Made by a program: the position numbers and the translations under genes
In this document: piece by piece, positions 11,895-19,694 of the stretch
Numbering within the stretch: the first letter of the stretch is position 1
How the letters are laid out: each line of letters starts with the position of its first letter
The notes under the pieces: generated by a model
Database searches by the model: none
Told to the model about the DNA's origin: nothing
What the model saw: the letters and a program-made list of their open reading frames with translations, nothing else
Virus record (IMG/VR): IMGVR_UViG_3300009171_000001
Span: 9,760 to 73,759 of that record
From: a virus
DNA: 64,000 nucleotides
Direction: 5' to 3' (one strand)

Positions 11895-12061
11895 ACGATA
11901 TATAGTCTATAAAGTAAATCCCAAAAATTGGATGAATATGAAAAACCCACCCCGATGAATAATAAATAGGGGGTATAGGGGGATAATATCTGGTTGAAGG
12001 GGAGTATCAGGAATATCAAGAATAGTACGATATATAGTCTATAAAGTAAATCCCAAAAATT
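11895..12061. repeat. 35-bp direct repeat pair
   Basis: ACGATATATAGTCTATAAAGTAAATCCCAAAAATT at 11895-11929 and 12027-12061; partial copy near 11792. Confidence 0.85.
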
Positions 12062-12139
12062 TGGTAATAACCGTGGGATGGCCATTACCCCCCCTTTTAC
12101 CCCCTCCCCCCCTCTATAGCGGGGTCGTCTAAAAATAAA

Positions 12140-12380
12140 TATATACTTTATATCCATAATACATCCTATATATACTATCTATACATCTATACTATATATC
12201 CTATAATAGTATATACTTTATATCCTGAATATACTTTGTATATACTATATATCTATACTATACTTATATCCTATTCTGGTATATACTATCTATACTTTTC
12301 TTATCCATAATACATCCTATATATACTATATATCTATACTATACTTATATCCTATTTTGGTATATACTATATATCCTATT
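12140..12380. repeat. TA-rich degenerate tandem repeats
   Basis: Reiterated TATATACTAT/ATATCCTAT units; TATCCATAATACATCCTATATATACTAT at 12151 and 12302. Confidence 0.75.
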
Positions 12381-12381
12381 T

Positions 12382-13167
12382 CTATTCATTACCTGCACCC
12401 CCCTCATTATCTATTTTATCGGGTAATAGGGCCACGGGATTAGGGGATGGTATATTATCTATAACCGTACTATCGATGGCCCGCCGTCTAATAGTTTCTA
12501 ATATCTTCTCGCGTACATCCATCGGTAACTCGTCTATAACTATCCTTCCTTTTATAGTAGTATTTTTATCTATCTCTATTTTCTCCCCGTACCCTCTATC
12601 CTTACACTTTGTTTTTAGCCCGTATAGAATCGCCGTTGTATCCATCGCTTTTACTAATTTATAAAATTGACTCTCTATAAAATCCTTCTTTATATCCTCT
12701 ATTTCTTTTACTAACTTACCGAAATCGCCATCGTTATTTAACCACTGGTAATACAACCCTCTACTTATCCCGACTTTCCGGCAAGCCTTCGCTATAGAGA
12801 AATTATTAGATATTAGGGCGTAGATAAAAAGATATTGATTAGCTGCTTTCCCCTTATTAGCCAAAAGGCTTTCTATTTTCCCCGTATCCGTCCCCTCTTT
12901 ATCATACTGATTTATCTTTTCCCAAACGGATTTTAGGTTATCGGGTAGCCGATTATAAACATAGTCTTTTATGCTTAGGTTGTTATTAGTTTTTTTCCGT
13001 ATAGACTTAGCTGTCTTTATAGCCATTCTAATCTTTTTATACTTTTTTCTCCATGTTATCAAGGTTGGCTTAGTCACGCCTATAGTTTTGGCTACGGTAT
13101 TTAAGGTGGCACCATCCTTCACCAAATCGTATATCGTAAAAACTAAACTATCGTTCCATTTTGTCAT
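12382..13167 (-). CDS. Terminase small subunit-like protein with two HTH motifs
   Basis: HTHs VAKTIGVTKPTLITW and ACRKVGISRGLYYQW; AILYGLKTKCKDRGY motif; upstream of terL. Confidence 0.75.
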   Translation of the reverse strand: MTKWNDSLVFTIYDLVKDGATLNTVAKTIGVTKPTLITWRKKYKKIRMAIKTAKSIRKKTNNNLSIKDYVYNRLPDNLKSVWEKINQYDKEGTDTGKIESLLANKGKAANQYLFIYALISNNFSIAKACRKVGISRGLYYQWLNNDGDFGKLVKEIEDIKKDFIESQFYKLVKAMDTTAILYGLKTKCKDRGYGEKIEIDKNTTIKGRIVIDELPMDVREKILETIRRRAIDSTVIDNIPSPNPVALLPDKIDNEGGAGNE

Positions 13168-13378
13168 ATATCTAATTATATCCTATATATCCTATATATT
13201 TATACCCTGATTAGGGATTTTTAGAATATACCGTTGAAACCTGAAAAAGTCAATAGGCAGGTATAGATTTATAGACGGAAAAAAGTAAAATTTCTTAAGA
13301 TTTTTTGGCCTTAAAATCTTGGTTTTTAGCGTAAAAACGGGGTTTTCCAAGATTTTTTCGATATACCCTAAAATTTTC

Positions 13379-13406
13379 TAAAGATTTCTCTCGCCTTAGC
13401 CGATAA
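13379..13406 (+). promoter_or_regulatory. Putative early promoter, sigma28-like TAAAG-N15-GCCGATAA
   Basis: TAAAGATT at 13379 and GCCGATAA at 13399-13406, at the head of the rightward early region. Confidence 0.5.
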
Positions 13407-13429
13407 CGTATAGTATAGTATATATAGTA

Positions 13430-13770
13430 TAGGCTATAAAGTATAGCCTAAGCATATTTGACAAGTTTATATCGGAGGCCGGGAAGGGCGGATTTTACTA
13501 CGGGGTAAGATTACGCGGTCGGCCTAAAATACCGGAAGGAATCTAAGTCGATACGCTACGGCTTACCTGGAAGTCCCGCTCCCGAAGAGGGCAGGCGGGT
13601 ATCTAAGGAAACTACGGGTGGACGGCTTCCAGCTCTATTTCAACCACGCTTCGGCCTCAGGCCCGATAGGGGTTAAAATAGTATCAAGGCTGGCGGCGGG
13701 GCAGGGCGATATATCGTAAGGATTTACGGGCAAGCGGGCGATACCAAGCAGATTTATCTGCCGGCAAAAG
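13430..13770 (+). ncRNA. Putative structured leader RNA of the early transcript
   Basis: ORF-free GC-rich island; hairpin 13430-13450; boxA-like GCATATTTGACAA at 13452; pairings GAGGCCG(13475)/CGGCCTC(13652), CTGGAAGTC(13567)/GGCTTCCAG(13624), CCCGC/GCGGG. Confidence 0.55.
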
Positions 13771-13850
13771 TCCACAATATAATATAAGATATATATACTT
13801 TATATATATACTTATATTACCAATTCTCCCTTAGAAAGAAAATTAGATTA

Positions 13851-13913
13851 GGGCCTAATCGGATTACCCGACAAAATATATCGGGTATAGCGGTTCAACT
13901 CCGCTATAGGCTC
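13851..13913 (+). ncRNA. tRNA-mimic element T1 (acceptor stem + T-arm, no D/anticodon arms)
   Basis: GGGCCTA/TAGGCTC stem; T-arm TAGCGG-TTCAACT-CCGCTA; internal TACCCGA/TCGGGTA hairpin. Confidence 0.7.
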
Positions 13914-13926
13914 TTGTGTTTGTAAG

Positions 13927-13969
13927 TAAAATATCTAATAATTATCTTATTTAAGGAGAACAAAAAATG
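13927..13969 (+). promoter_or_regulatory. Conserved early-gene leader/RBS (TAAAATATCTAATAATTATCTTATTTAAGGAGAACAAAAATG)
   Basis: Near-identical copies start at about 13927, 14310, 14684, 15150, 16122, 16474 and 18688; RBS-only copies near 18990 and 19917. Confidence 0.85.
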
Positions 13970-14233
13970 AAAACCGAAACGAAAACCGAAACGAAAATTA
14001 CGAACGCCGAAAAAAGGGTAATCTTATCCGCTATTCGGGAAAAGATAAAAATCGCCTCCGATATTCTTTCCGTCGCCACCGTCGAGGAAAATTACGAGGA
14101 TGAGGTAGTTATCGATGCGATAACGGACGCGGCGTTAATCATCGAAATCGCGTATCTTAATTCGCTCGATGACGGCGGAGCGAGGATTCTTTACCCGCCG
14201 AAAGACGGGGAGGCCTACCGGAACGGGGAATAA
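13967..14233 (+). CDS. Early hypothetical protein
   Basis: 88 aa; conserved leader/RBS. Confidence 0.8.
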   Translation: MKTETKTETKITNAEKRVILSAIREKIKIASDILSVATVEENYEDEVVIDAITDAALIIEIAYLNSLDDGGARILYPPKDGEAYRNGE

Positions 14234-14234
14234 A

Positions 14235-14310
14235 AGTTGAAATACCCGATAATCTATATCGGGTATATATAGGTGAAAAGCGATAACCTATACTGATGAG
14301 ACTAATCGCT
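14235..14310 (+). ncRNA. Hammerhead ribozyme, type II (HH1)
   Basis: AGTT-GAAA-stem III (TACCCGAT/ATCGGGTA)-TA-stem I (TATAGGT/ACCTATA)-CTGATGA-GACT; loop AGCGAT pairs with 3' ATCGCT; predicted cut after 14267. Confidence 0.92.
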
Positions 14311-14347
14311 AAAATATCTATTTAATATCTATTTAAGGAGAACAAAA

Positions 14348-14623
14348 ATGAGAACGTCGAGAAAAGCTCCGATTATTCAAGTCCGAACTTTGGCCGAAAG
14401 GATAATCGAAATTAGCGAAAATCCACTAAGTGAAGCAGATTTTGAAGGGAAGACGGGACGCTCTCGGAGCGAGGTATTACTATTTTTAGCGAAGACTATC
14501 CTAATGGAATTAGAATCCACCGCTAAGTCTCGCCTCTTATATATACCCGCTAAGTCAAGCATTGCCGCTAAGTCAAGCATTGCCGCTAAGTCAAGCATTG
14601 CCGCTAAGTCAAGCATCCGCTAA
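14348..14623 (+). CDS. Early hypothetical protein with C-terminal AAKSSI repeats
   Basis: 91 aa; conserved leader/RBS. Confidence 0.75.
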   Translation: MRTSRKAPIIQVRTLAERIIEISENPLSEADFEGKTGRSRSEVLLFLAKTILMELESTAKSRLLYIPAKSSIAAKSSIAAKSSIAAKSSIR

Positions 14624-14626
14624 GTC
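14547..14626 (+). repeat. 18-bp tandem repeat CCGCTAAGTCAAGCATTG (~4 copies)
   Basis: Directly visible in the sequence. Confidence 0.9.
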
Positions 14627-14676
14627 TCCATCTGAAATAGAGGTCAGATTTATAGGTTCGACTCCTATGGAGACTT
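14622..14676 (+). ncRNA. tRNA-mimic element T2
   Basis: AAGTCTCC/GGAGACTT stem; T-arm ATAGG-TTCGACT-CCTAT; internal ATCTGA/TCAGAT hairpin. Confidence 0.72.
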
Positions 14677-14722
14677 TTGTAAGTAAAATATCTAATAATT
14701 ATCTTATTTAAGGAGAACAAAA

Positions 14723-15058
14723 ATGAAGACCAAAATAAAAGACACATTAAGACCATTCACTAAACAGGATGATCGCGTTTTTTGCAGCACTAAAAAACCT
14801 TCGGATGGCTCAACACCACTTATCGGCAGGGTCAAGATAACAAATTGGCCTGATTCCGATAAAACTGATGGGTGGGATGACTTTGTGACTGTAATAGTGG
14901 ATGGCCTCGGAGTATGTTTGTGTGGGACAGATGGTGTATTAACAAGAGCCATCCCAGATTTTGAAGATGCTAAGGCCATTGCATATTACATTCTCTCCAC
15001 TCCCACAGATTACATCCAACTGGTAAATAGCGGCAAGTGGGAATCCATCAATCTGTAG
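14723..15058 (+). CDS. Early hypothetical protein
   Basis: 111 aa; conserved leader/RBS. Confidence 0.8.
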   Translation: MKTKIKDTLRPFTKQDDRVFCSTKKPSDGSTPLIGRVKITNWPDSDKTDGWDDFVTVIVDGLGVCLCGTDGVLTRAIPDFEDAKAIAYYILSTPTDYIQLVNSGKWESINL

Positions 15059-15074
15059 TAAAAACCGCCCGCTA

Positions 15075-15150
15075 AGTCGAAATACCCGATATAGATTATC
15101 GGGTATATATAGGTCAAAGCGATGAACCTATACTGATGAGACTAATCGCT
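15075..15150 (+). ncRNA. Hammerhead ribozyme, type II (HH2)
   Basis: AGTC-GAAA-stem III-TA-stem I-CTGATGA(15133-15139)-GACT plus pseudoknot; predicted cut after 15107. Confidence 0.94.
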
Positions 15151-15187
15151 AAAATATCTAATAATTATCTTATTAAGGAGAACAAAA

Positions 15188-16048
15188 ATGAAGACAGTAA
15201 AAACAAACCGATTAAGTGAACGTGCTATGCTGGTACACCTGCGCATTTTGAGATATGCCGGTCATACCAAAGACAATGAAGTAGTTTTGGACGTTTGTTC
15301 GCAAAAACAAGCCACTCAGGACAGCGGTGGATGGTACACCTATTTGATTCCAAAAAAGGAATTGAGTGGTGTTAATCACGCTGCTTCCCGATGTCGCGAA
15401 ATCCACAATCACTATACTTTTCCATGGCTGGATGGTGGGATGCGGATATTACCATCTTTGTATTTCTTCAAATACCGCGAAGCCATCGCTACGGCCATCG
15501 CTGAGTATGATGAGGCAGTTGAGATATTTCTAACCAGATACCCAGACATTGTAACTAAGTCCAAGGAACGTCTGGGTCAACTGAACAGAATAATGCCATC
15601 GGTGAAGGAGATTCAAAGCAAGTTTGCAGTTTCACACAGCATATTTCCACTGCCTGAGACGGAGGACTTCCGTGTCAAATTGGCGGATGAGGAAAAGGAG
15701 TCTGTGAAAGCAACAATCACAGACAGTCTCAATGCCACAATGACGGCTGCGGTCAGTGCCGTTTGGGGCAAATTAGCCAAGTCTGTGGAAAAGATTGCTG
15801 CAGCCACAAAGGACAAAGACAAACAATTTCGCAATGTCCTTTTCACAAACTTGGTTCAACTGTGTGAGGATTTGCCTCAACTGAATTTTACTAATGACGT
15901 CAAATTAGAAGAGGTGAGACAGCACATCTTAACTACGCTGGCTAAATTCAATCCAGATGATGTTCGTGAAGACAGTCAAAAACGCAAGGCAGCTGCCAAA
16001 GCAGCCAAAGACGTTTTGAACAAGATGAAAGATTATGCAACTACATAG
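15188..16048 (+). CDS. Conserved phage early protein (DUF3150-like)
   Basis: LSERAMLVHLRI...HYTFPW.DGG.RILP pattern, of the kind often found beside AAA/VWA pairs. Confidence 0.55.
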   Translation: MKTVKTNRLSERAMLVHLRILRYAGHTKDNEVVLDVCSQKQATQDSGGWYTYLIPKKELSGVNHAASRCREIHNHYTFPWLDGGMRILPSLYFFKYREAIATAIAEYDEAVEIFLTRYPDIVTKSKERLGQLNRIMPSVKEIQSKFAVSHSIFPLPETEDFRVKLADEEKESVKATITDSLNATMTAAVSAVWGKLAKSVEKIAAATKDKDKQFRNVLFTNLVQLCEDLPQLNFTNDVKLEEVRQHILTTLAKFNPDDVREDSQKRKAAAKAAKDVLNKMKDYATT

Positions 16049-16058
16049 CGTGTTCTCC

Positions 16059-16108
16059 GACCACCGCAGGTTTCAGGCCGTTAATGGGTTCAAACCCCAT
16101 CGGTGGTC
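16059..16108 (+). ncRNA. tRNA-mimic element T3
   Basis: GACCACCG/CGGTGGTC stem; T-arm ATGGG-TTCAAAC-CCCAT. Confidence 0.72.
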
Positions 16109-16160
16109 TTGTGTTTGTATGTAAAATATCTAATAATTATCTTATTTAAGGAGAACAAAA

Positions 16161-16400
16161 ATGAACCTGCAAGAAATTAAAAGCCGAGTTGAGGCACTAA
16201 AAGCCTCTCTGAAAATTGATGCTGTCGATGCCATTTATGAAGACAGCTTTGCGCTCGGCTATTTTGGCAATCAAATCCAGCATGAAATTGCCGGCCACGA
16301 AGGTTGCTTTGCCTATGCTCGTACATCGAGCAAAGCTCGCATCGAGGCGATTGTAAACATGCTTGTGAATGAAGGAGAATGTTTGGCCAAAAAAGACTAA
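16161..16400 (+). CDS. Early hypothetical protein
   Basis: 79 aa; conserved leader/RBS. Confidence 0.8.
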   Translation: MNLQEIKSRVEALKASLKIDAVDAIYEDSFALGYFGNQIQHEIAGHEGCFAYARTSSKARIEAIVNMLVNEGECLAKKD

Positions 16401-16474
16401 GTCGAAATACCCGATATAGAATATCGGGTATCTACGGATAAAAGCGATAATCCGTATCGAAAAGACTAATCGCT
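16400..16474 (+). ncRNA. Hammerhead ribozyme type II with variant core UCGAAAA (HH3)
   Basis: AGTC-GAAA-stem III-TC-stem I (TACGGAT/ATCCGTA)-TCGAAAA(16457-16463)-GACT plus AGCGAT/ATCGCT pseudoknot; predicted cut after 16432. Confidence 0.8.
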
Positions 16475-16511
16475 AAAATATCTAATAAATATCTTAAAAA
16501 GGAGAACAAAA

Positions 16512-17498
16512 ATGAATGCTAAACAAATGAAAGTTGTACTGACTAAGTGCATCAAAAACGGTTTGCCCGTGCTTATCAAAGGAGCGCCAGGTGTTGGCAA
16601 GTCTGATGTCGTGACGCAAGTAGCTGCTGAATTGAAGATGGATTTAATCATCAGCCATCCAGTGGTAAGTGACCCGACAGACTTCAAAGGTCTGCCAGGG
16701 ATTGTGGATGGCAAAGCTGAATTTTTGCCGTTTGGTGATTTGCGCTCGCTAATTCAAGCCAAAAAGCCAACAATTGCTTTCTTGGATGATTTGGGCCAAG
16801 CACCAGCCGCAGTACAAGCTGCAGCAATGCAACTAATCCTTGCTCGCCGAGTGAATGGACATAAAGTGAGTGACAAGGTGGTATTTATTGCCGCCACTAA
16901 TCGACGGCAAGACAGGGCTGGTGTAACAGGCATCCTTGAACCTGTTAAGTCCAGATTTGCCACCATCATTGAGTTGACACCAGATTTAGACAGCTGGTCT
17001 GAGTGGGCGTTGGCTAATGATGTTCCACCGCAGATTTTGGGCTTTTTGAATTTTCGCCCAAATTTGCTTTGCACCAATGAAGCAACAGCCGATATTGTGA
17101 ACCATCCGTGCCCACGTACTTGGGCTTTTGCAAGCAAATTAATCCAAATTGATTTGACGGATATACAAAGTCTGGCTGGAGCTTTGGGCGAAGGTTGTGC
17201 GGTTGAGTTTGTGGGATTTATGCGAGTGTTCGACAGTTTGCCGAACATTCAAACAATCCTATTAGACCCAGAAAATACCACCATCCCAAATGAACCTGCC
17301 GCTATGTATGCTGTGGTGTCCGCCTTGGTTAATCGAGTGTCCGACAAGACATTCAAAGCCATAGTTACATATGCTGACCGTTTGCCAGCTGATTTTGGCA
17401 CGCTGCTAATCCGTGATTGTGTTAAGTCCAATCCAAACATTCAAAACACTGCTGCTTTTGGTCAATGGGCCATCAAGCACGCTAATTTGCTAATATGA
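16512..17498 (+). CDS. MoxR-like AAA+ ATPase
   Basis: GAPGVGKS Walker A, FLDDLGQA Walker B, AATNR, SRF, PRTW. Confidence 0.9.
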   Translation: MNAKQMKVVLTKCIKNGLPVLIKGAPGVGKSDVVTQVAAELKMDLIISHPVVSDPTDFKGLPGIVDGKAEFLPFGDLRSLIQAKKPTIAFLDDLGQAPAAVQAAAMQLILARRVNGHKVSDKVVFIAATNRRQDRAGVTGILEPVKSRFATIIELTPDLDSWSEWALANDVPPQILGFLNFRPNLLCTNEATADIVNHPCPRTWAFASKLIQIDLTDIQSLAGALGEGCAVEFVGFMRVFDSLPNIQTILLDPENTTIPNEPAAMYAVVSALVNRVSDKTFKAIVTYADRLPADFGTLLIRDCVKSNPNIQNTAAFGQWAIKHANLLI

Positions 17499-17506
17499 GG
17501 TGTACA

Positions 17507-18613
17507 ATGAATGCTATGGAAATTATGACTAAGGCCAGAACTCACTTGTTGCTTGACCATCCATTTTTTGGATGCTTGGCCATGCGATTAAGTCTGGTTG
17601 AGGACAATCAGTTTGAAACAGCGGGGACAGATGGCAAGGAATTGAGATTCAATTCACAATTCATTCAATCATTACGATTGAATCAAGTGGTTGGATTGTT
17701 TGCTCACGAGGTTATGCACTTGGCTTTGGGGCACAACTGGCGGCAAGGCACACGTGAACATGAACGGTGGAACAACGCTGGCGATTACGCCATCAATTCC
17801 AATCTTGTCCGCACTGGGATTCACCTGCCGGATGGTGCTTTGATTGCTTATCAGTTTGACAAAATGAGTGCAGAAGAAATTTACACTTATCTTCCGTCCA
17901 ATCCAAACCAAAATCAAAGCTCCGGCTCAAGCCAAACGTCTGATCCAGGTGGTTGCGGGGCAGTATTACCCACACCCAATGATTCTCAACTGGATGAGAC
18001 TAAGGCAGAGTGGAAGACAGCAGTGGCTCAAGCCATACAATTTGCTGGCATCGGTAATTTGCCTGCGGATTTGGCTCGCCAATTACAATCGGTGATTGAC
18101 CCATCGTTGCCATGGTATGTATTGCTGCGTGATTTTGTAGAACGCTCAGCGCGCAACGATTTCACTTGGCAAAGGCCAAATGCTCGCTACATCAATCAAG
18201 GCATTGTTCTGCCAGGATTGATTAGTGAAGAGTTGCCTGAAGTGATTGTGGCTGTTGATACCAGTGGCTCAATTAGTCAAGCCCAATTGGATTCTTTTGC
18301 GGCTGAGGCCAGTGCGGTGCTTAGTGCTTACAAAACAACAATCCGTGTGATATATTGCGACAACGAAGTACAAGGCGAGCAAATCTATCAAACAGATGAT
18401 TTGCCCATCCACTTATCACCGAAAGGTGGTGGCGGGACAAAGTTTGACCCTGTGTTCCGCTATGTAAACGAGAATGGATATACACCATCCTGCGTGATAT
18501 ATCTGACGGATTTGTTGGGGCCCACACCCCAATGTGAGCCAGAATGCCCTGTACTTTGGGTAAGTACAAAGCCAGGCAAAATGCCCTTTGGTACAGTGAT
18601 TCAACTGAATTGA
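17507..18613 (+). CDS. Metallopeptidase (HEXXH)-VWA domain protein (DUF2201-like)
   Basis: AHEVMH, DYAIN, VAVDTSGS MIDAS, GGGGT.F.PVF, YLTD. Confidence 0.9.
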   Translation: MNAMEIMTKARTHLLLDHPFFGCLAMRLSLVEDNQFETAGTDGKELRFNSQFIQSLRLNQVVGLFAHEVMHLALGHNWRQGTREHERWNNAGDYAINSNLVRTGIHLPDGALIAYQFDKMSAEEIYTYLPSNPNQNQSSGSSQTSDPGGCGAVLPTPNDSQLDETKAEWKTAVAQAIQFAGIGNLPADLARQLQSVIDPSLPWYVLLRDFVERSARNDFTWQRPNARYINQGIVLPGLISEELPEVIVAVDTSGSISQAQLDSFAAEASAVLSAYKTTIRVIYCDNEVQGEQIYQTDDLPIHLSPKGGGGTKFDPVFRYVNENGYTPSCVIYLTDLLGPTPQCEPECPVLWVSTKPGKMPFGTVIQLN

Positions 18614-18614
18614 A

Positions 18615-18688
18615 TGTCGAAATACCCGATAATCTATATCGGGTATATATAGGCTAAGGCGATAACCTATACTGATGAGACAATCGCT
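18615..18688 (+). ncRNA. Hammerhead ribozyme, type II (HH4)
   Basis: TGTC-GAAA-stem III-TA-stem I (TATAGG/CCTATA)-CTGATGA(18672-18678)-GACA with compensatory stem II; predicted cut after 18647. Confidence 0.93.
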
Positions 18689-18724
18689 AAAATATCTAAT
18701 AAATATCTTAAAAGGAGAACAAAA

Positions 18725-18931
18725 ATGGAACTATGGACTAAAACACGATGGACTCGCTTGCGAAAGAAATCGAAAATAATTCAAACGGGTGGGATTGAAG
18801 GTTCACAAATTTACAATCTCATAATCGAAACACCCGAAGGCAAACACCTGGCTGGAGACTTGATATGGGATGGGTGGGCAGAGCTTGTGCAAGTCTGGAC
18901 GCCAACACCACAAGAATACAAGCAAACGTAA
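18725..18931 (+). CDS. Early hypothetical protein
   Basis: 68 aa; conserved leader/RBS. Confidence 0.75.
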   Translation: MELWTKTRWTRLRKKSKIIQTGGIEGSQIYNLIIETPEGKHLAGDLIWDGWAELVQVWTPTPQEYKQT

Positions 18932-18949
18932 GGAGAACCAAAATACATC

Positions 18950-18979
18950 CGCTAAGGCTCGCTAAGGCTCGCTAAGGCT
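18950..18979 (+). repeat. 10-bp tandem repeat CGCTAAGGCT x3
   Basis: Directly visible in the intergenic spacer. Confidence 0.85.
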
Positions 18980-19002
18980 AACATTTTTTAAGGAGAACAA
19001 AA

Positions 19003-19509
19003 ATGAACAACAATAATATAGAAATGACGTATTGTGATTGTGTTGATTTGATACGCAAAACAGTTTGGGATTTCATCGCTAAGTACAACAAACATCCCGA
19101 TGAGTTTGATGAACTGATGAGTCAGGCTAATGAATACTTTATGACCGCATACAACACGCATGATAAAACGCGAAGCTCATTTACCACGTGGTTGAGGGTA
19201 AGGGTATGGTACGGATTAGTGATGGCTAATGGCAAAGAAATGAAACACACTCGCAATCAATCCCGTCCACCACGCCCAACAAATCATCAAGACAACATAG
19301 GATTATTGGATTTGATAGACAGTTTGAATGAGGATGCCAAAAATCTAATCTTGCTGGTACGAAGTGTGCCAGCAGATTTGGACCAGCTGTTTCATCGTGC
19401 ACACCGCAAACCCGCACGCAAGTATGTCTTTCAATACTTGAAAGATTGTGGATGGACGCGGAGTGAGATATTGAATGCTTTTTCAAGTTTGAAATGCCTA
19501 TTACAATAA
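19003..19509 (+). CDS. Phage sigma-70-like factor
   Basis: FDELMSQANEYFMTAYNTHDKTRSSFTTWL resembles sigma region 2. Confidence 0.65.
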   Translation: MNNNNIEMTYCDCVDLIRKTVWDFIAKYNKHPDEFDELMSQANEYFMTAYNTHDKTRSSFTTWLRVRVWYGLVMANGKEMKHTRNQSRPPRPTNHQDNIGLLDLIDSLNEDAKNLILLVRSVPADLDQLFHRAHRKPARKYVFQYLKDCGWTRSEILNAFSSLKCLLQ

Positions 19510-19523
19510 AAAAGGGGGACAAA

Positions 19524-19694
19524 ATGGAAACCGACAAGAAGGAACAAATTGTTTATCTACATATTTGCTTTTTTTGTAACAAACGCTGGTGGACACCTAA
19601 CAAAGTTGCTAATTGTCCCAAATGTTCCCATCAGCATATTTGGTTCAGGGGGACAAGTAAAATAGTTGATGTAAAAATGGAGGTACAAAAATGA
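19524..19694 (+). CDS. Small zinc-ribbon protein
   Basis: CFFC...CPKC; start after GGGGG RBS. Confidence 0.55.
   Translation: METDKKEQIVYLHICFFCNKRWWTPNKVANCPKCSHQHIWFRGTSKIVDVKMEVQK

Follow-up and report, generated by a model that had tools for sequence, protein, structure and literature searches.

Transfer RNA (tRNA) shapes beside coding regions serve as cutting signals for RNase P and RNase Z, as in the mitochondrial tRNA punctuation model and in MALAT1/mascRNA. The early polycistronic RNA of phage T7 is cut between its genes by RNase III, which yields stable single mRNAs with hairpin ends, and RiboJ insulators and tRNA- or ribozyme-flanked guide RNA arrays provide a fixed 5′ end for the downstream RNA whatever its context. 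In plant mitochondria, tRNA-shaped structures known as t-elements make mRNA ends (Forner et al. 2007, PMC1920247). Multiple hammerhead ribozymes were found to flank single genes in prophages by Perreault et al. 2011, who proposed that transcripts are processed into mRNAs of gene length and demonstrated cleavage for three such arrays, both in vitro and in vivo (Escherichia coli) (PMC3088659). A pseudoknot of at least 4 bp between loop I and the 3′ tail is a hallmark of the common type II form without being universal (PMC3088659), and type II hammerheads beside phage-like genes are active in vivo in Desulfovibrio vulgaris (PMC8782182). T4-type phages carry early promoter–stem-loop units (PeSLs), short conserved intergenic units beside hypervariable early ORFans that are thought to drive modular shuffling (PMC2839356, PMC4122927). 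The roles of self-cleaving ribozymes in bacteria and phages remain largely unproven more than ten years after thousands of them were catalogued. Here we describe an array of RNA modules in IMG/VR virus record IMGVR_UViG_3300009171_000001, a record of 73,759 bp with direct terminal repeats that is rated complete and comes from a tailed phage of freshwater sediment, whose DNA is present in sequencing runs of freshwater sediment and wetland. In the 64 kb of this record that were analysed (the window), an RNA module and, behind it, a single type of standard leader stand at each of seven consecutive gene junctions (13850-18730, plus strand). The modules are three full-consensus type II hammerheads (HH1, HH2 and HH4), an element with the hammerhead fold but a variant core (HH3) and three tRNA look-alikes (T1-T3).

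The modules lie in the order T1 (13850..13914), HH1 (14235..14310), T2 (14622..14676), HH2 (15075..15150), T3 (16059..16108), HH3 (16400..16474) and HH4 (18615..18688), all on the plus strand, and each begins between −2 and +16 nt from the preceding stop codon. The leader UAAAAUAUCUAAUAA(U/A)UAUCUUA...AAGGAGAACAAAAAUG, whose family has eight copies, stands after every module, and the next ATG follows 36-37 nt after the end of a hammerhead and 46-52 nt after the end of a tRNA-like element. Its exact 16-nt start region, AAGGAGAACAAAAATG, occurs eight times (0.12 expected), always on the plus strand and only between 14335 and 19932, and a search for the start-region pattern in viral contigs returned only single, chance-level matches. 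The first copy of the standard leader and start region (13915..13966, plus strand) is composed of UUGUGUUUGUAAG, UAAAAUAUCUAAUAAUUAUCUUAUUU and AAGGAGAAC, which belong to repeat families D1, D6 and D10. An earlier note on this DNA had described seven units of module, shared leader and open reading frame (ORF) with each element close to the preceding stop codon, and this layout was recovered in full, with all seven elements in place on the plus strand.

The type II core tested for consisted of C3-U4-G5-A6-N7-G8-A9, G12-A13-A14, an A15.1-U16.1 pair and H17 other than G. HH1, HH2 and HH4 carry it completely, with CUGAUGA, GAA, the A15.1-U16.1 closing pair and A at H17. The 5′ half of these three elements comprises the 3′ strand of stem II (AGUY), G12-A13-A14 and a 10-bp stem III that is opened by A15.1-U16.1 and followed by H17, while the 3′ half comprises a 7-bp stem I, the C3-A9 segment and the 5′ strand of stem II (GACU). 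The core is surrounded by three helices, of which I and III end in loops and II is open. In addition, AGCGAU in loop I pairs with AUCGCU, one or two bases 3′ of stem II, and this pseudoknot has 6 bp in all four window copies, one G-U included. Pairing is kept in 99.1% of cells across the four copies, with three compensatory pairs. A covariance model built from them (R1) gave its own members 99.7-104.8 bits and otherwise matched only the T1 hairpin in the window, while a plain descriptor run over the whole genome found exactly three canonical copies (HH1, HH2 and HH4), all on the plus strand. The motif CTGATGAGNC alone occurs four times (0.30 expected), and a search of viral contigs for the exact stem III pattern found none. 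Reading the core places the predicted cuts after A14267 in HH1, A15107 in HH2 and A18647 in HH4, the same positions that the earlier note had given.

HH3 departs from this consensus. It scores 104.5 bits with model R1 and keeps stem II, stem III and the pseudoknot, and three pairs of its stem I are changed on both sides in a compensatory manner. Its core reads UCGAAAA (16457-16463) with C at H17, so that C3/G8 is replaced by U3/A8, still a potential pair, and U4 by C. A relaxed-core search of the whole data set showed HH3 to be the sole convincing non-canonical copy. In a complete double-mutant scan of a hammerhead, the C3/G8 pair was rescued only by a C-G to G-C swap, and activity was low with every other change to the motif (PMC9901934). 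Because of this, HH3 is probably slow or inactive, with a fold that still appears to be under selection. The proposal that all four copies are type II hammerheads therefore stands for the three with the full consensus and is qualified for HH3, whose suggested cut after 16432 is doubtful. The stem III loops of the four copies show a separate peculiarity: ATCTA in HH1 (14257-14261) and HH4 (18637-18641) is the reverse complement of TAGAT in HH2 (15097-15101), while HH3 has TAGAA (16422-16426). This inversion between paralogous copies resembles a hairpin flip at the DNA level.

The tRNA-like descriptor asked for a T stem of approximately 5-6 bp on which a 7-8-bp acceptor stem is stacked, and for a 7-nt T loop, UUCRANN. 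T1-T3 fit this description, as do elements in four related phage contigs (L017, L019, L022 and L023), and in its strict form the descriptor found three distinct elements in the whole window (0.54 expected), all within junction gaps and on the coding strand. The acceptor-stem/T-arm mimics proposed earlier were thereby confirmed as a structural class. T1 combines an acceptor stem of 8 bp with an internal hairpin and a T stem of 6 bp that carries the loop UUCAACU, and its minimum-energy fold is the corresponding Y shape (z = −4.7). T2, which overlaps the stop codon of the preceding ORF, likewise has an acceptor stem, a hairpin and a T stem with the loop UUCGACU, and a Y-shaped minimum-energy fold (z = −2.8). 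T3 has an 8-bp acceptor stem, a T stem of AUGGG/CCCAU and the loop UUCAAAC, and matches the mascRNA model weakly (19.6 bits). One short hairpin stands in for the D and anticodon arms in each of the three, with 17-31 nt between the 5′ strand of the acceptor stem and the T stem, and CCA is encoded in none. A G-C pair (G53-C61) closes the T loop in all seven tRNA-like elements, though the descriptor did not impose it. The inner hairpin of T1, a 31-nt stretch (repeat family D17), is 77-84% identical to the GAAA-plus-stem III segment of the hammerheads, and because of this homology T1 can be regarded as a mosaic. Amongst the related elements, that of L022 is the first of its array, like T1 in the window, and that of L017 scores 44.5 bits with the Rfam tRNA model (cut-off 29) and is called 'tRNA-???' by ARAGORN, with an abnormal anticodon region.

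Relatives were retrieved through the array's MoxR-like ATPase and a 286-amino-acid protein (gene A), which gave 20 distinct contigs of uncultured phages. These share a common order of small terminase, divergent region, small ORFs, gene A, the ATPase (gene B) and a DUF2201 gene (gene C). Gene A has 41-44% identity (alignment A4) and is present in 15 loci. The small ORFs between these anchors are nearly all unique to one phage, and the anchors A-B-C are conserved.

Using the descriptor on both strands, 15 canonical hammerheads were found in 249 kb (0.23 expected). All hammerhead matches are junctional and share the strand of the genes; many overlap the stop codon (TAA/TAG + GACC), and a ribosome-binding site follows within approximately 20-40 nt. 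The largest set, in L017, has seven hammerheads at seven consecutive junctions within 2.3 kb, followed directly after gene A by the tRNA-family element. L001 has type II hammerheads in front of its second ORF and of gene A, one between A and B and one, with a variant core, behind C (four to five in total), each preceding that phage's own standard leader, ...UUUUGAAAGG(G/A)CAAUACCAUG, and those before A and after C correspond to window hammerheads. The last of these, at 8511-8565 of L001, is a hammerhead-like element after the DUF2201 gene that has GAGA for GAAA and is orthologous to HH4; with HH3, the clade thus has two core variants. L015 and L020 have one hammerhead each and L027, L029, L030, L031 and L032 one to three each (three in L027), and in the last five contigs the arrangement of stop codon, hammerhead, ribosome-binding site and ATG is invariant. 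A GC-rich hammerhead subtype was found in seven contigs of the collection scan, and the relatives' minimal copies of 52-54 nt show no evident pseudoknot. HH2 (29.7 bits, E = 2.4e-5) and HH4 (26.7 bits, E = 2e-4) are recovered by a second model (R2), for which GC-rich hammerheads of relatives were the sole input. Across 24 distinct hammerheads from the window and ten other contigs, 99.5% of cells pair, 14 of the 16 pairs show compensatory changes and none of 500 shuffles scored as high; this alignment was fitted to the model, so slid controls, with 30-41% of cells paired, are the fairer comparison. The strict alternation of ribozymes and tRNA mimics, which the earlier note had taken for part of the system, did not survive this comparison: ten of the 35 possible orders of three tRNA-like elements and four hammerheads keep the former non-adjacent, as the order T-H-T-H-T-H-H does, and the relatives do not conserve it, with hammerheads in an unbroken row in L017 and hammerheads only in L001. 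A meaning for the alternation was rejected on these grounds.

At the junction after gene A, one module type takes the place of another from phage to phage. L001 carries a hammerhead there, and L017 the tRNA-family element. The window (T3), L019 and L023 have Y-shaped tRNA-like elements at this site, and L004, L005, L012, L020 and L021 have long hairpins, a few of them interrupted by an internal loop; nothing structured was found there in L002. Such interchange at orthologous junctions fits a shared processing or insulating role, and from their distribution the modules are discrete, optional and exchangeable. Junction hairpins with similar G-G-U-U-(A/G)-A-A-A loops (e.g. GGCAGGTTAAAAACTGTC) recur at approximately 4160-4185 of L001, after gene A in L020 and after an extra ORF in L011. 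These may represent a fourth, protein-bound type of junction module.

Between the modules of the window, all on the plus strand, lie the cassettes and anchors. Cassette ORF 1 (88 aa, 13967..14233) belongs to no known family and is a singleton among the related arrays, and ORF 2 (91 aa, 14348..14623) has a C-terminus made of 4.6 tandem copies of an 18-nt unit (14547-14626). ORF 3 (111 aa, 14723..15058) and ORF 5 (79 aa, 16161..16400) also belong to no known family, and ORF 8 (68 aa, 18725..18931) is an ORF call. Gene A, to which no function is assigned, spans 15188..16048 and is conserved across the phage clade. Gene B (16512..17498) encodes the MoxR-like AAA+ ATPase (Pfam AAA_5 and AAA; phrog_1297 at 3e-78), and gene C (17495..18613, with its start at 17495 or 17508) a DUF2201 metallopeptidase-like and VWA-like protein (DUF2201_N 1e-48, DUF2201 9e-30). 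Genes B and C overlap, and there is no RNA module between them. At the following junction (18931-19003), the standard start region is accompanied by three tandem copies of CGCTAAGGCT (18950..18979, plus strand, from a repeat scan), and there is neither a hammerhead nor a tRNA-like element. Behind this last full copy of the leader region, a small sigma-factor-like protein is encoded at 19003..19509 on the plus strand (Sigma70_r2 and sigma70-ECF, both weak and below cut-offs). The tandem repeats at 14547-14626 and 18950-18979 share the motif CGCTAAG(T/G)C, which is also found in the 5′ flank of HH2. The former array (18 nt x 4.6) runs into T2, and long tandem repeats adjoin junction modules in L005 and L017 too.

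The observed motifs, covariation, junction geometry and replacement of modules at orthologous junctions are best explained, with moderate confidence on our part, by interchangeable RNA-processing or insulating modules placed around hypervariable early ORFan cassettes. In this model, the promoter-proximal 5 kb, with its phage-specific small ORFan cassettes and three conserved anchors, would be transcribed as one RNA in which each junction consists of a plug-in RNA module followed by the standard AU-rich leader and start region. Co-transcription of the modules with the genes is suggested by the shared strand and by module starts at or inside the preceding stop codon. HH1, HH2 and HH4 would then cut themselves after H17, leaving the upstream mRNA with the 10-bp hairpin of stem III and a 2′,3′-cyclic phosphate at its 3′ end, and the downstream mRNA with a 5′-OH buried in the stem I hairpin and pseudoknot. 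The type II topology would thereby provide a protective hairpin on both cleavage products. Given the established properties of RNase E/J and 3′ exonucleases, both product ends should be poorly suited to end-dependent decay. T1-T3 would offer an acceptor/T-arm minihelix to RNase P, which would cut on the 5′ side, and possibly to RNase Z on the 3′ side, since CCA is not encoded. The long transcript would thereby be divided into mRNAs of gene size, with fixed ends and the same 5′ untranslated region (UTR) throughout. Each cassette would then be translated and degraded independently of its neighbours, much as the synthetic RiboJ insulator achieves. Homology for cassette swapping may also come from the repeated modules, and cassette exchange is likely a second function rather than a competing one. 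We infer the co-transcription, the ribozyme and RNase P/Z cleavage, the stabilising effect and the early timing from sequence. The earlier idea of a single transcript cut into pieces is supported, by comparison only, by the common strand, the overlap with stop codons, the short gaps and the module swaps; two of its parts are not supported or overstated, a cut in every hammerhead, which is doubtful for HH3, and the alternation, which is within chance and not conserved. The formation of circular or spliced RNA from hammerhead-flanked segments was also considered; no evidence was seen for it here, and the 2011 study did not detect it either (PMC3088659). The phage encodes no RtcB gene.

Several results weigh against this model. 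An Infernal comparison with Rfam RF02276 (Hammerhead_II, cut-off 37 bits), the check that the earlier note had recommended, left the window copies unmatched at any threshold, even at E up to 10 and with a 101-nt HH2 query, and we do not claim type II membership of these copies by the Rfam criterion. At gathering thresholds Rfam gave nothing in the window or in L001-L009, with sub-threshold matches only at E up to 10, and the L017 hammerheads, which align end to end with RF02276, reach 29.6-36.2 bits and so fall just under the cut-off. HH3 and one L001 copy have non-consensus cores, so cutting would not be required of every module. T1-T3 have no D arm, normal anticodon arm or CCA, neither ARAGORN nor Rfam RF00005 called a tRNA in the window, and the tRNA-like fold of T3 (−18.6 kcal/mol) lies 2.9 kcal/mol above its minimum (−21.5 kcal/mol). 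L015 has no hammerhead between ORFs whose L017 orthologues are separated by one, and L002 has none either; because some orthologous junctions hold no module, the modules appear dispensable for expression. The stem III hairpin of the GC-rich relatives, together with the U-rich strand of stem I, was flagged as terminator-like, and partial termination there is possible. Finally, co-transcription and every cut in this phage are predictions from the DNA, and how RNase P and RNase Z would act depends on the host.

The best-surviving alternative is that the modules are mainly recombination joints, mobile regulatory cassettes for swapping early ORFans in which RNA cleavage is secondary or a leftover. 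We consider this unlikely as the principal explanation, and it is compatible with a processing role. Several observations are in its favour: small ORFs that are nearly all singletons between maintained A-B-C anchors, the presence or absence of a module without change in the flanking genes (L015 versus L017), a mosaic T1 that carries a hammerhead stem III hairpin, stem I and stem III variants in mixed combinations in L017, a stem III loop inverted between copies, tandem repeats that adjoin modules in the window, L005 and L017, and a sharp shift in dinucleotide composition exactly at T2. Plain repeats, however, need no catalytic core, covarying stems, pseudoknot or G-C-closed T loop, and the modules found at the same junction are unrelated in sequence, so RNA structure is conserved there rather than homology. 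PeSLs offer a precedent for such shuffling in T4-type phages (PMC2839356, PMC4122927), but they carry a promoter and none was seen here.

A second alternative concerns only the tRNA-like elements, which would be remnants of decayed tRNA genes of the phage, or attachment or decoy sequences that derive from tRNAs, and would take no part in mRNA processing; the hammerheads alone would be functional. Phages commonly carry tRNA genes among their early genes, the window elements are rejected by tRNA finders, and the L017 element, above the Rfam tRNA cut-off yet abnormal in its anticodon region, resembles a step in such decay. However, in the three different mini-elements of the window the acceptor stem, T stem and T loop are perfectly preserved and all else is lost, and the retention of just these parts points to selection on what RNase P recognises. 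Decay would also not account for elements that all stand at a set distance from one and the same leader, that replace hammerheads at orthologous junctions and that, in T1 and the L022 element, stand at the very start of their arrays, and no adjoining integrase was seen in a genome that is only partly annotated. We rate decay as less likely still than recombination joints.

According to the weakest alternative, each cassette is its own transcription unit, with a promoter in the leader for the host or a phage-directed polymerase and with the elements acting as terminators or attenuators. A consensus scan for sigma-70-like sites found 16 in 12900-19600 (15.5 expected), and the absence of leader promoters that had been proposed earlier therefore holds with one exception, a single weak promoter-like site (ATGAGA-18-AATAAT, 15136-15165) in one leader. 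Terminator-like sites were called at none of the window's junctions. In L001, a single good promoter (TTTACA-17-TATTAT) precedes the array and there is no promoter-like site on the plus strand within it. In L017, L027 and L030 the gap from hammerhead to ATG is only approximately 20-40 nt, too short for a promoter plus 5′ UTR. The AT-rich leader with its TAAAAT and AATAAT, the TTGTGT that by eye lies after T1 and T3 at the right distance from AATAAT, the relatives' terminator-like stem III hairpins and the sigma-like protein of the phage lend this reading some appeal, but it is very improbable given that promoter-like sites are not enriched, that −35 positions are poor and fall inside a ribozyme core or tRNA-like stem, and that a terminator would be insufficient to explain the conserved CUGAUGA and GAAA core, stem I, stem II complement and pseudoknot, which lie downstream of the hairpin.

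The array lies at the start of the rightward gene block. The minus strand encodes the small and large terminase, the portal and a lambda-J-like tail protein, and the plus strand, rightward from approximately 13.95 kb, encodes small unknown ORFs, the MoxR-like ATPase, the DUF2201 protein, the sigma-like protein and further genes, including helicases, a primase-like protein and DNA polymerase. An AT-rich divergent control region at approximately 13.2-13.9 kb separates the leftward structural genes from the rightward replication genes, and the module array adjoins it at the promoter-proximal end of the latter. From this map position alone, 'early' timing of the array genes would be a reasonable inference. 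An N4-like affinity suggested by ATPase matches was rejected, as the giant virion RNA polymerase is absent and the lambda-J-like tail protein, portal and terminase are present. A nucleotide search of a phage collection gave no match to the window, and no prophage relatives were found via gene A in the genome collection searched.

Upstream of T1 lies a GC-rich non-coding stretch of 320 nt (13455..13775, plus strand) with no plus-strand ORF of at least 40 aa. Its fold has z = −2.5 and Rfam gives no match to it. It may be a transcribed 5′ leader RNA, and T1 may release it as a leader or small RNA of a kind not yet described. A structured leader of approximately 300 nt is also present in L001 (3890-4190) and L015 (3800-4100), after the TTTACA-17-TATTAT promoter, and a blastn search of 13170-14700 against all related loci found no nucleotide homology for the upstream leader. 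By eye, the first 100 nt or so are conserved between the L001 and L015 leaders. The best sigma-70-like promoter candidate before the array (TCCACA-17-TATACT, 13771..13799, plus strand) matches the consensus at 9 of 12 positions and is a consensus match only; an AT-only palindrome of approximately 40 nt at 13780-13819 overlaps it. At 13430-13450, within GTATA-type repeats, there is a perfect 9-bp hairpin with a 3-nt loop (TAGGCTATA-AAG-TATAGCCTA). The dinucleotides TG and CA are strongly depleted from 11900 to 14500 of the window, which covers the small terminase, intergenic DNA and the first two early ORFs, with observed/expected ratios of 0.23-0.5 that climb back above 1 at approximately 14600, exactly at T2. 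Ratios are 0.0-0.15 over 2.4 kb in L005 (1200-3600) and depletion is also seen in L022 (4350-5000); its cause was not found.

Early ORFan genes often include functions in host takeover and anti-defence. The array links RNA processing modules to the turnover of such genes. One and the same junction is occupied by a different module (hammerhead, tRNA mimic or hairpin) depending on the phage, in each case ahead of a standard leader, which provides a comparative argument for selected cutting or insulating at cistron boundaries. With seven junctions within 5 kb, the array is also a compact test system and a source of short orthogonal parts. More tentatively, and with the balance of our judgement slightly against it, this clade of freshwater-sediment phages might use a general modular mRNA punctuation in which a ribozyme, an RNase P/Z substrate or a nuclease-sensitive hairpin can stand interchangeably, at any early junction, before a phage-specific standard start region. 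Newly acquired ORFans would then be immediately expressible and independently tunable, the swaps between ribozymes and tRNA mimics would be natural genetic evidence that the long-debated task of phage and bacterial hammerheads is to cut mRNA between cistrons, and core variants such as HH3 would be deliberately non-cutting or conditional, keeping their neighbours on one mRNA.

Compared with known systems, the closest likeness is to the prophage arrays reported in 2011, where several hammerheads likewise lie within a few kb on one strand around single genes or short blocks of varying identity. The same clustering around genes is found in the window (four in 4.5 kb, HH3 included), L017 (seven in 2.3 kb), L001 (four to five) and L027 (three). 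The window modules differ from those arrays in being tied to one standard leader at a fixed distance and mixed with tRNA-like elements, and in that the orthologous junctions of related phages hold other kinds of module. For its hammerhead half, the array has a precedent: clustered gene-flanking hammerheads and the idea of processing were published in 2011 (PMC3088659), while tRNA mimics in the ribozyme slots of a phage operon, a fixed module-leader unit and module interchange at orthologous junctions were not found described in the literature searched. The new features are the combination of ribozymes with tRNA mimics, the shared leader and the exchange of one kind of module for another. The window hammerheads agree in core, topology and pseudoknot position with the type II consensus in print, represented by RF02276, and the relatives' copies align with it end to end; the window copies differ in their AT-rich stems, 10-bp stem III and 4-bp stem II, in obtaining no RF02276 score and in the UCGAAAA core of HH3.

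The Rfam family freshwater-2 (RF02980) gives weak matches along its full length to HH3 plus leader (16410-16514, 26.5 bits) and T1 plus leader (13867-13969, 25.2 bits), both far below its cut-off of 49.9. Its consensus ends in AAGGAGAAAAcAAAUG, very similar to the start region of this phage, but has no hammerhead core; as a lead only, it may represent a further junction-module type of related freshwater phages. The t-elements, mitochondrial punctuation and mascRNA depend on no more than the acceptor and T-arm part, which is what T1-T3 keep, but those systems are organellar or nuclear, and the literature searched yielded no account of such elements between phage operon genes; cleavage at T1-T3 is a prediction. 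The long internal-loop hairpins at the L004 and L005 junctions resemble the RNase III sites of T7, while the window would rely on self-cleavage and tRNA mimicry instead of double-stranded RNase III sites. PeSLs combine an early promoter with a terminator-like stem-loop, whereas the window modules are catalytic or tRNA-like with no evident promoter, promoter-like sites being neither enriched nor consistent in the leaders. RiboJ and the guide RNA arrays are engineered devices, of which the phage array would be a natural counterpart.

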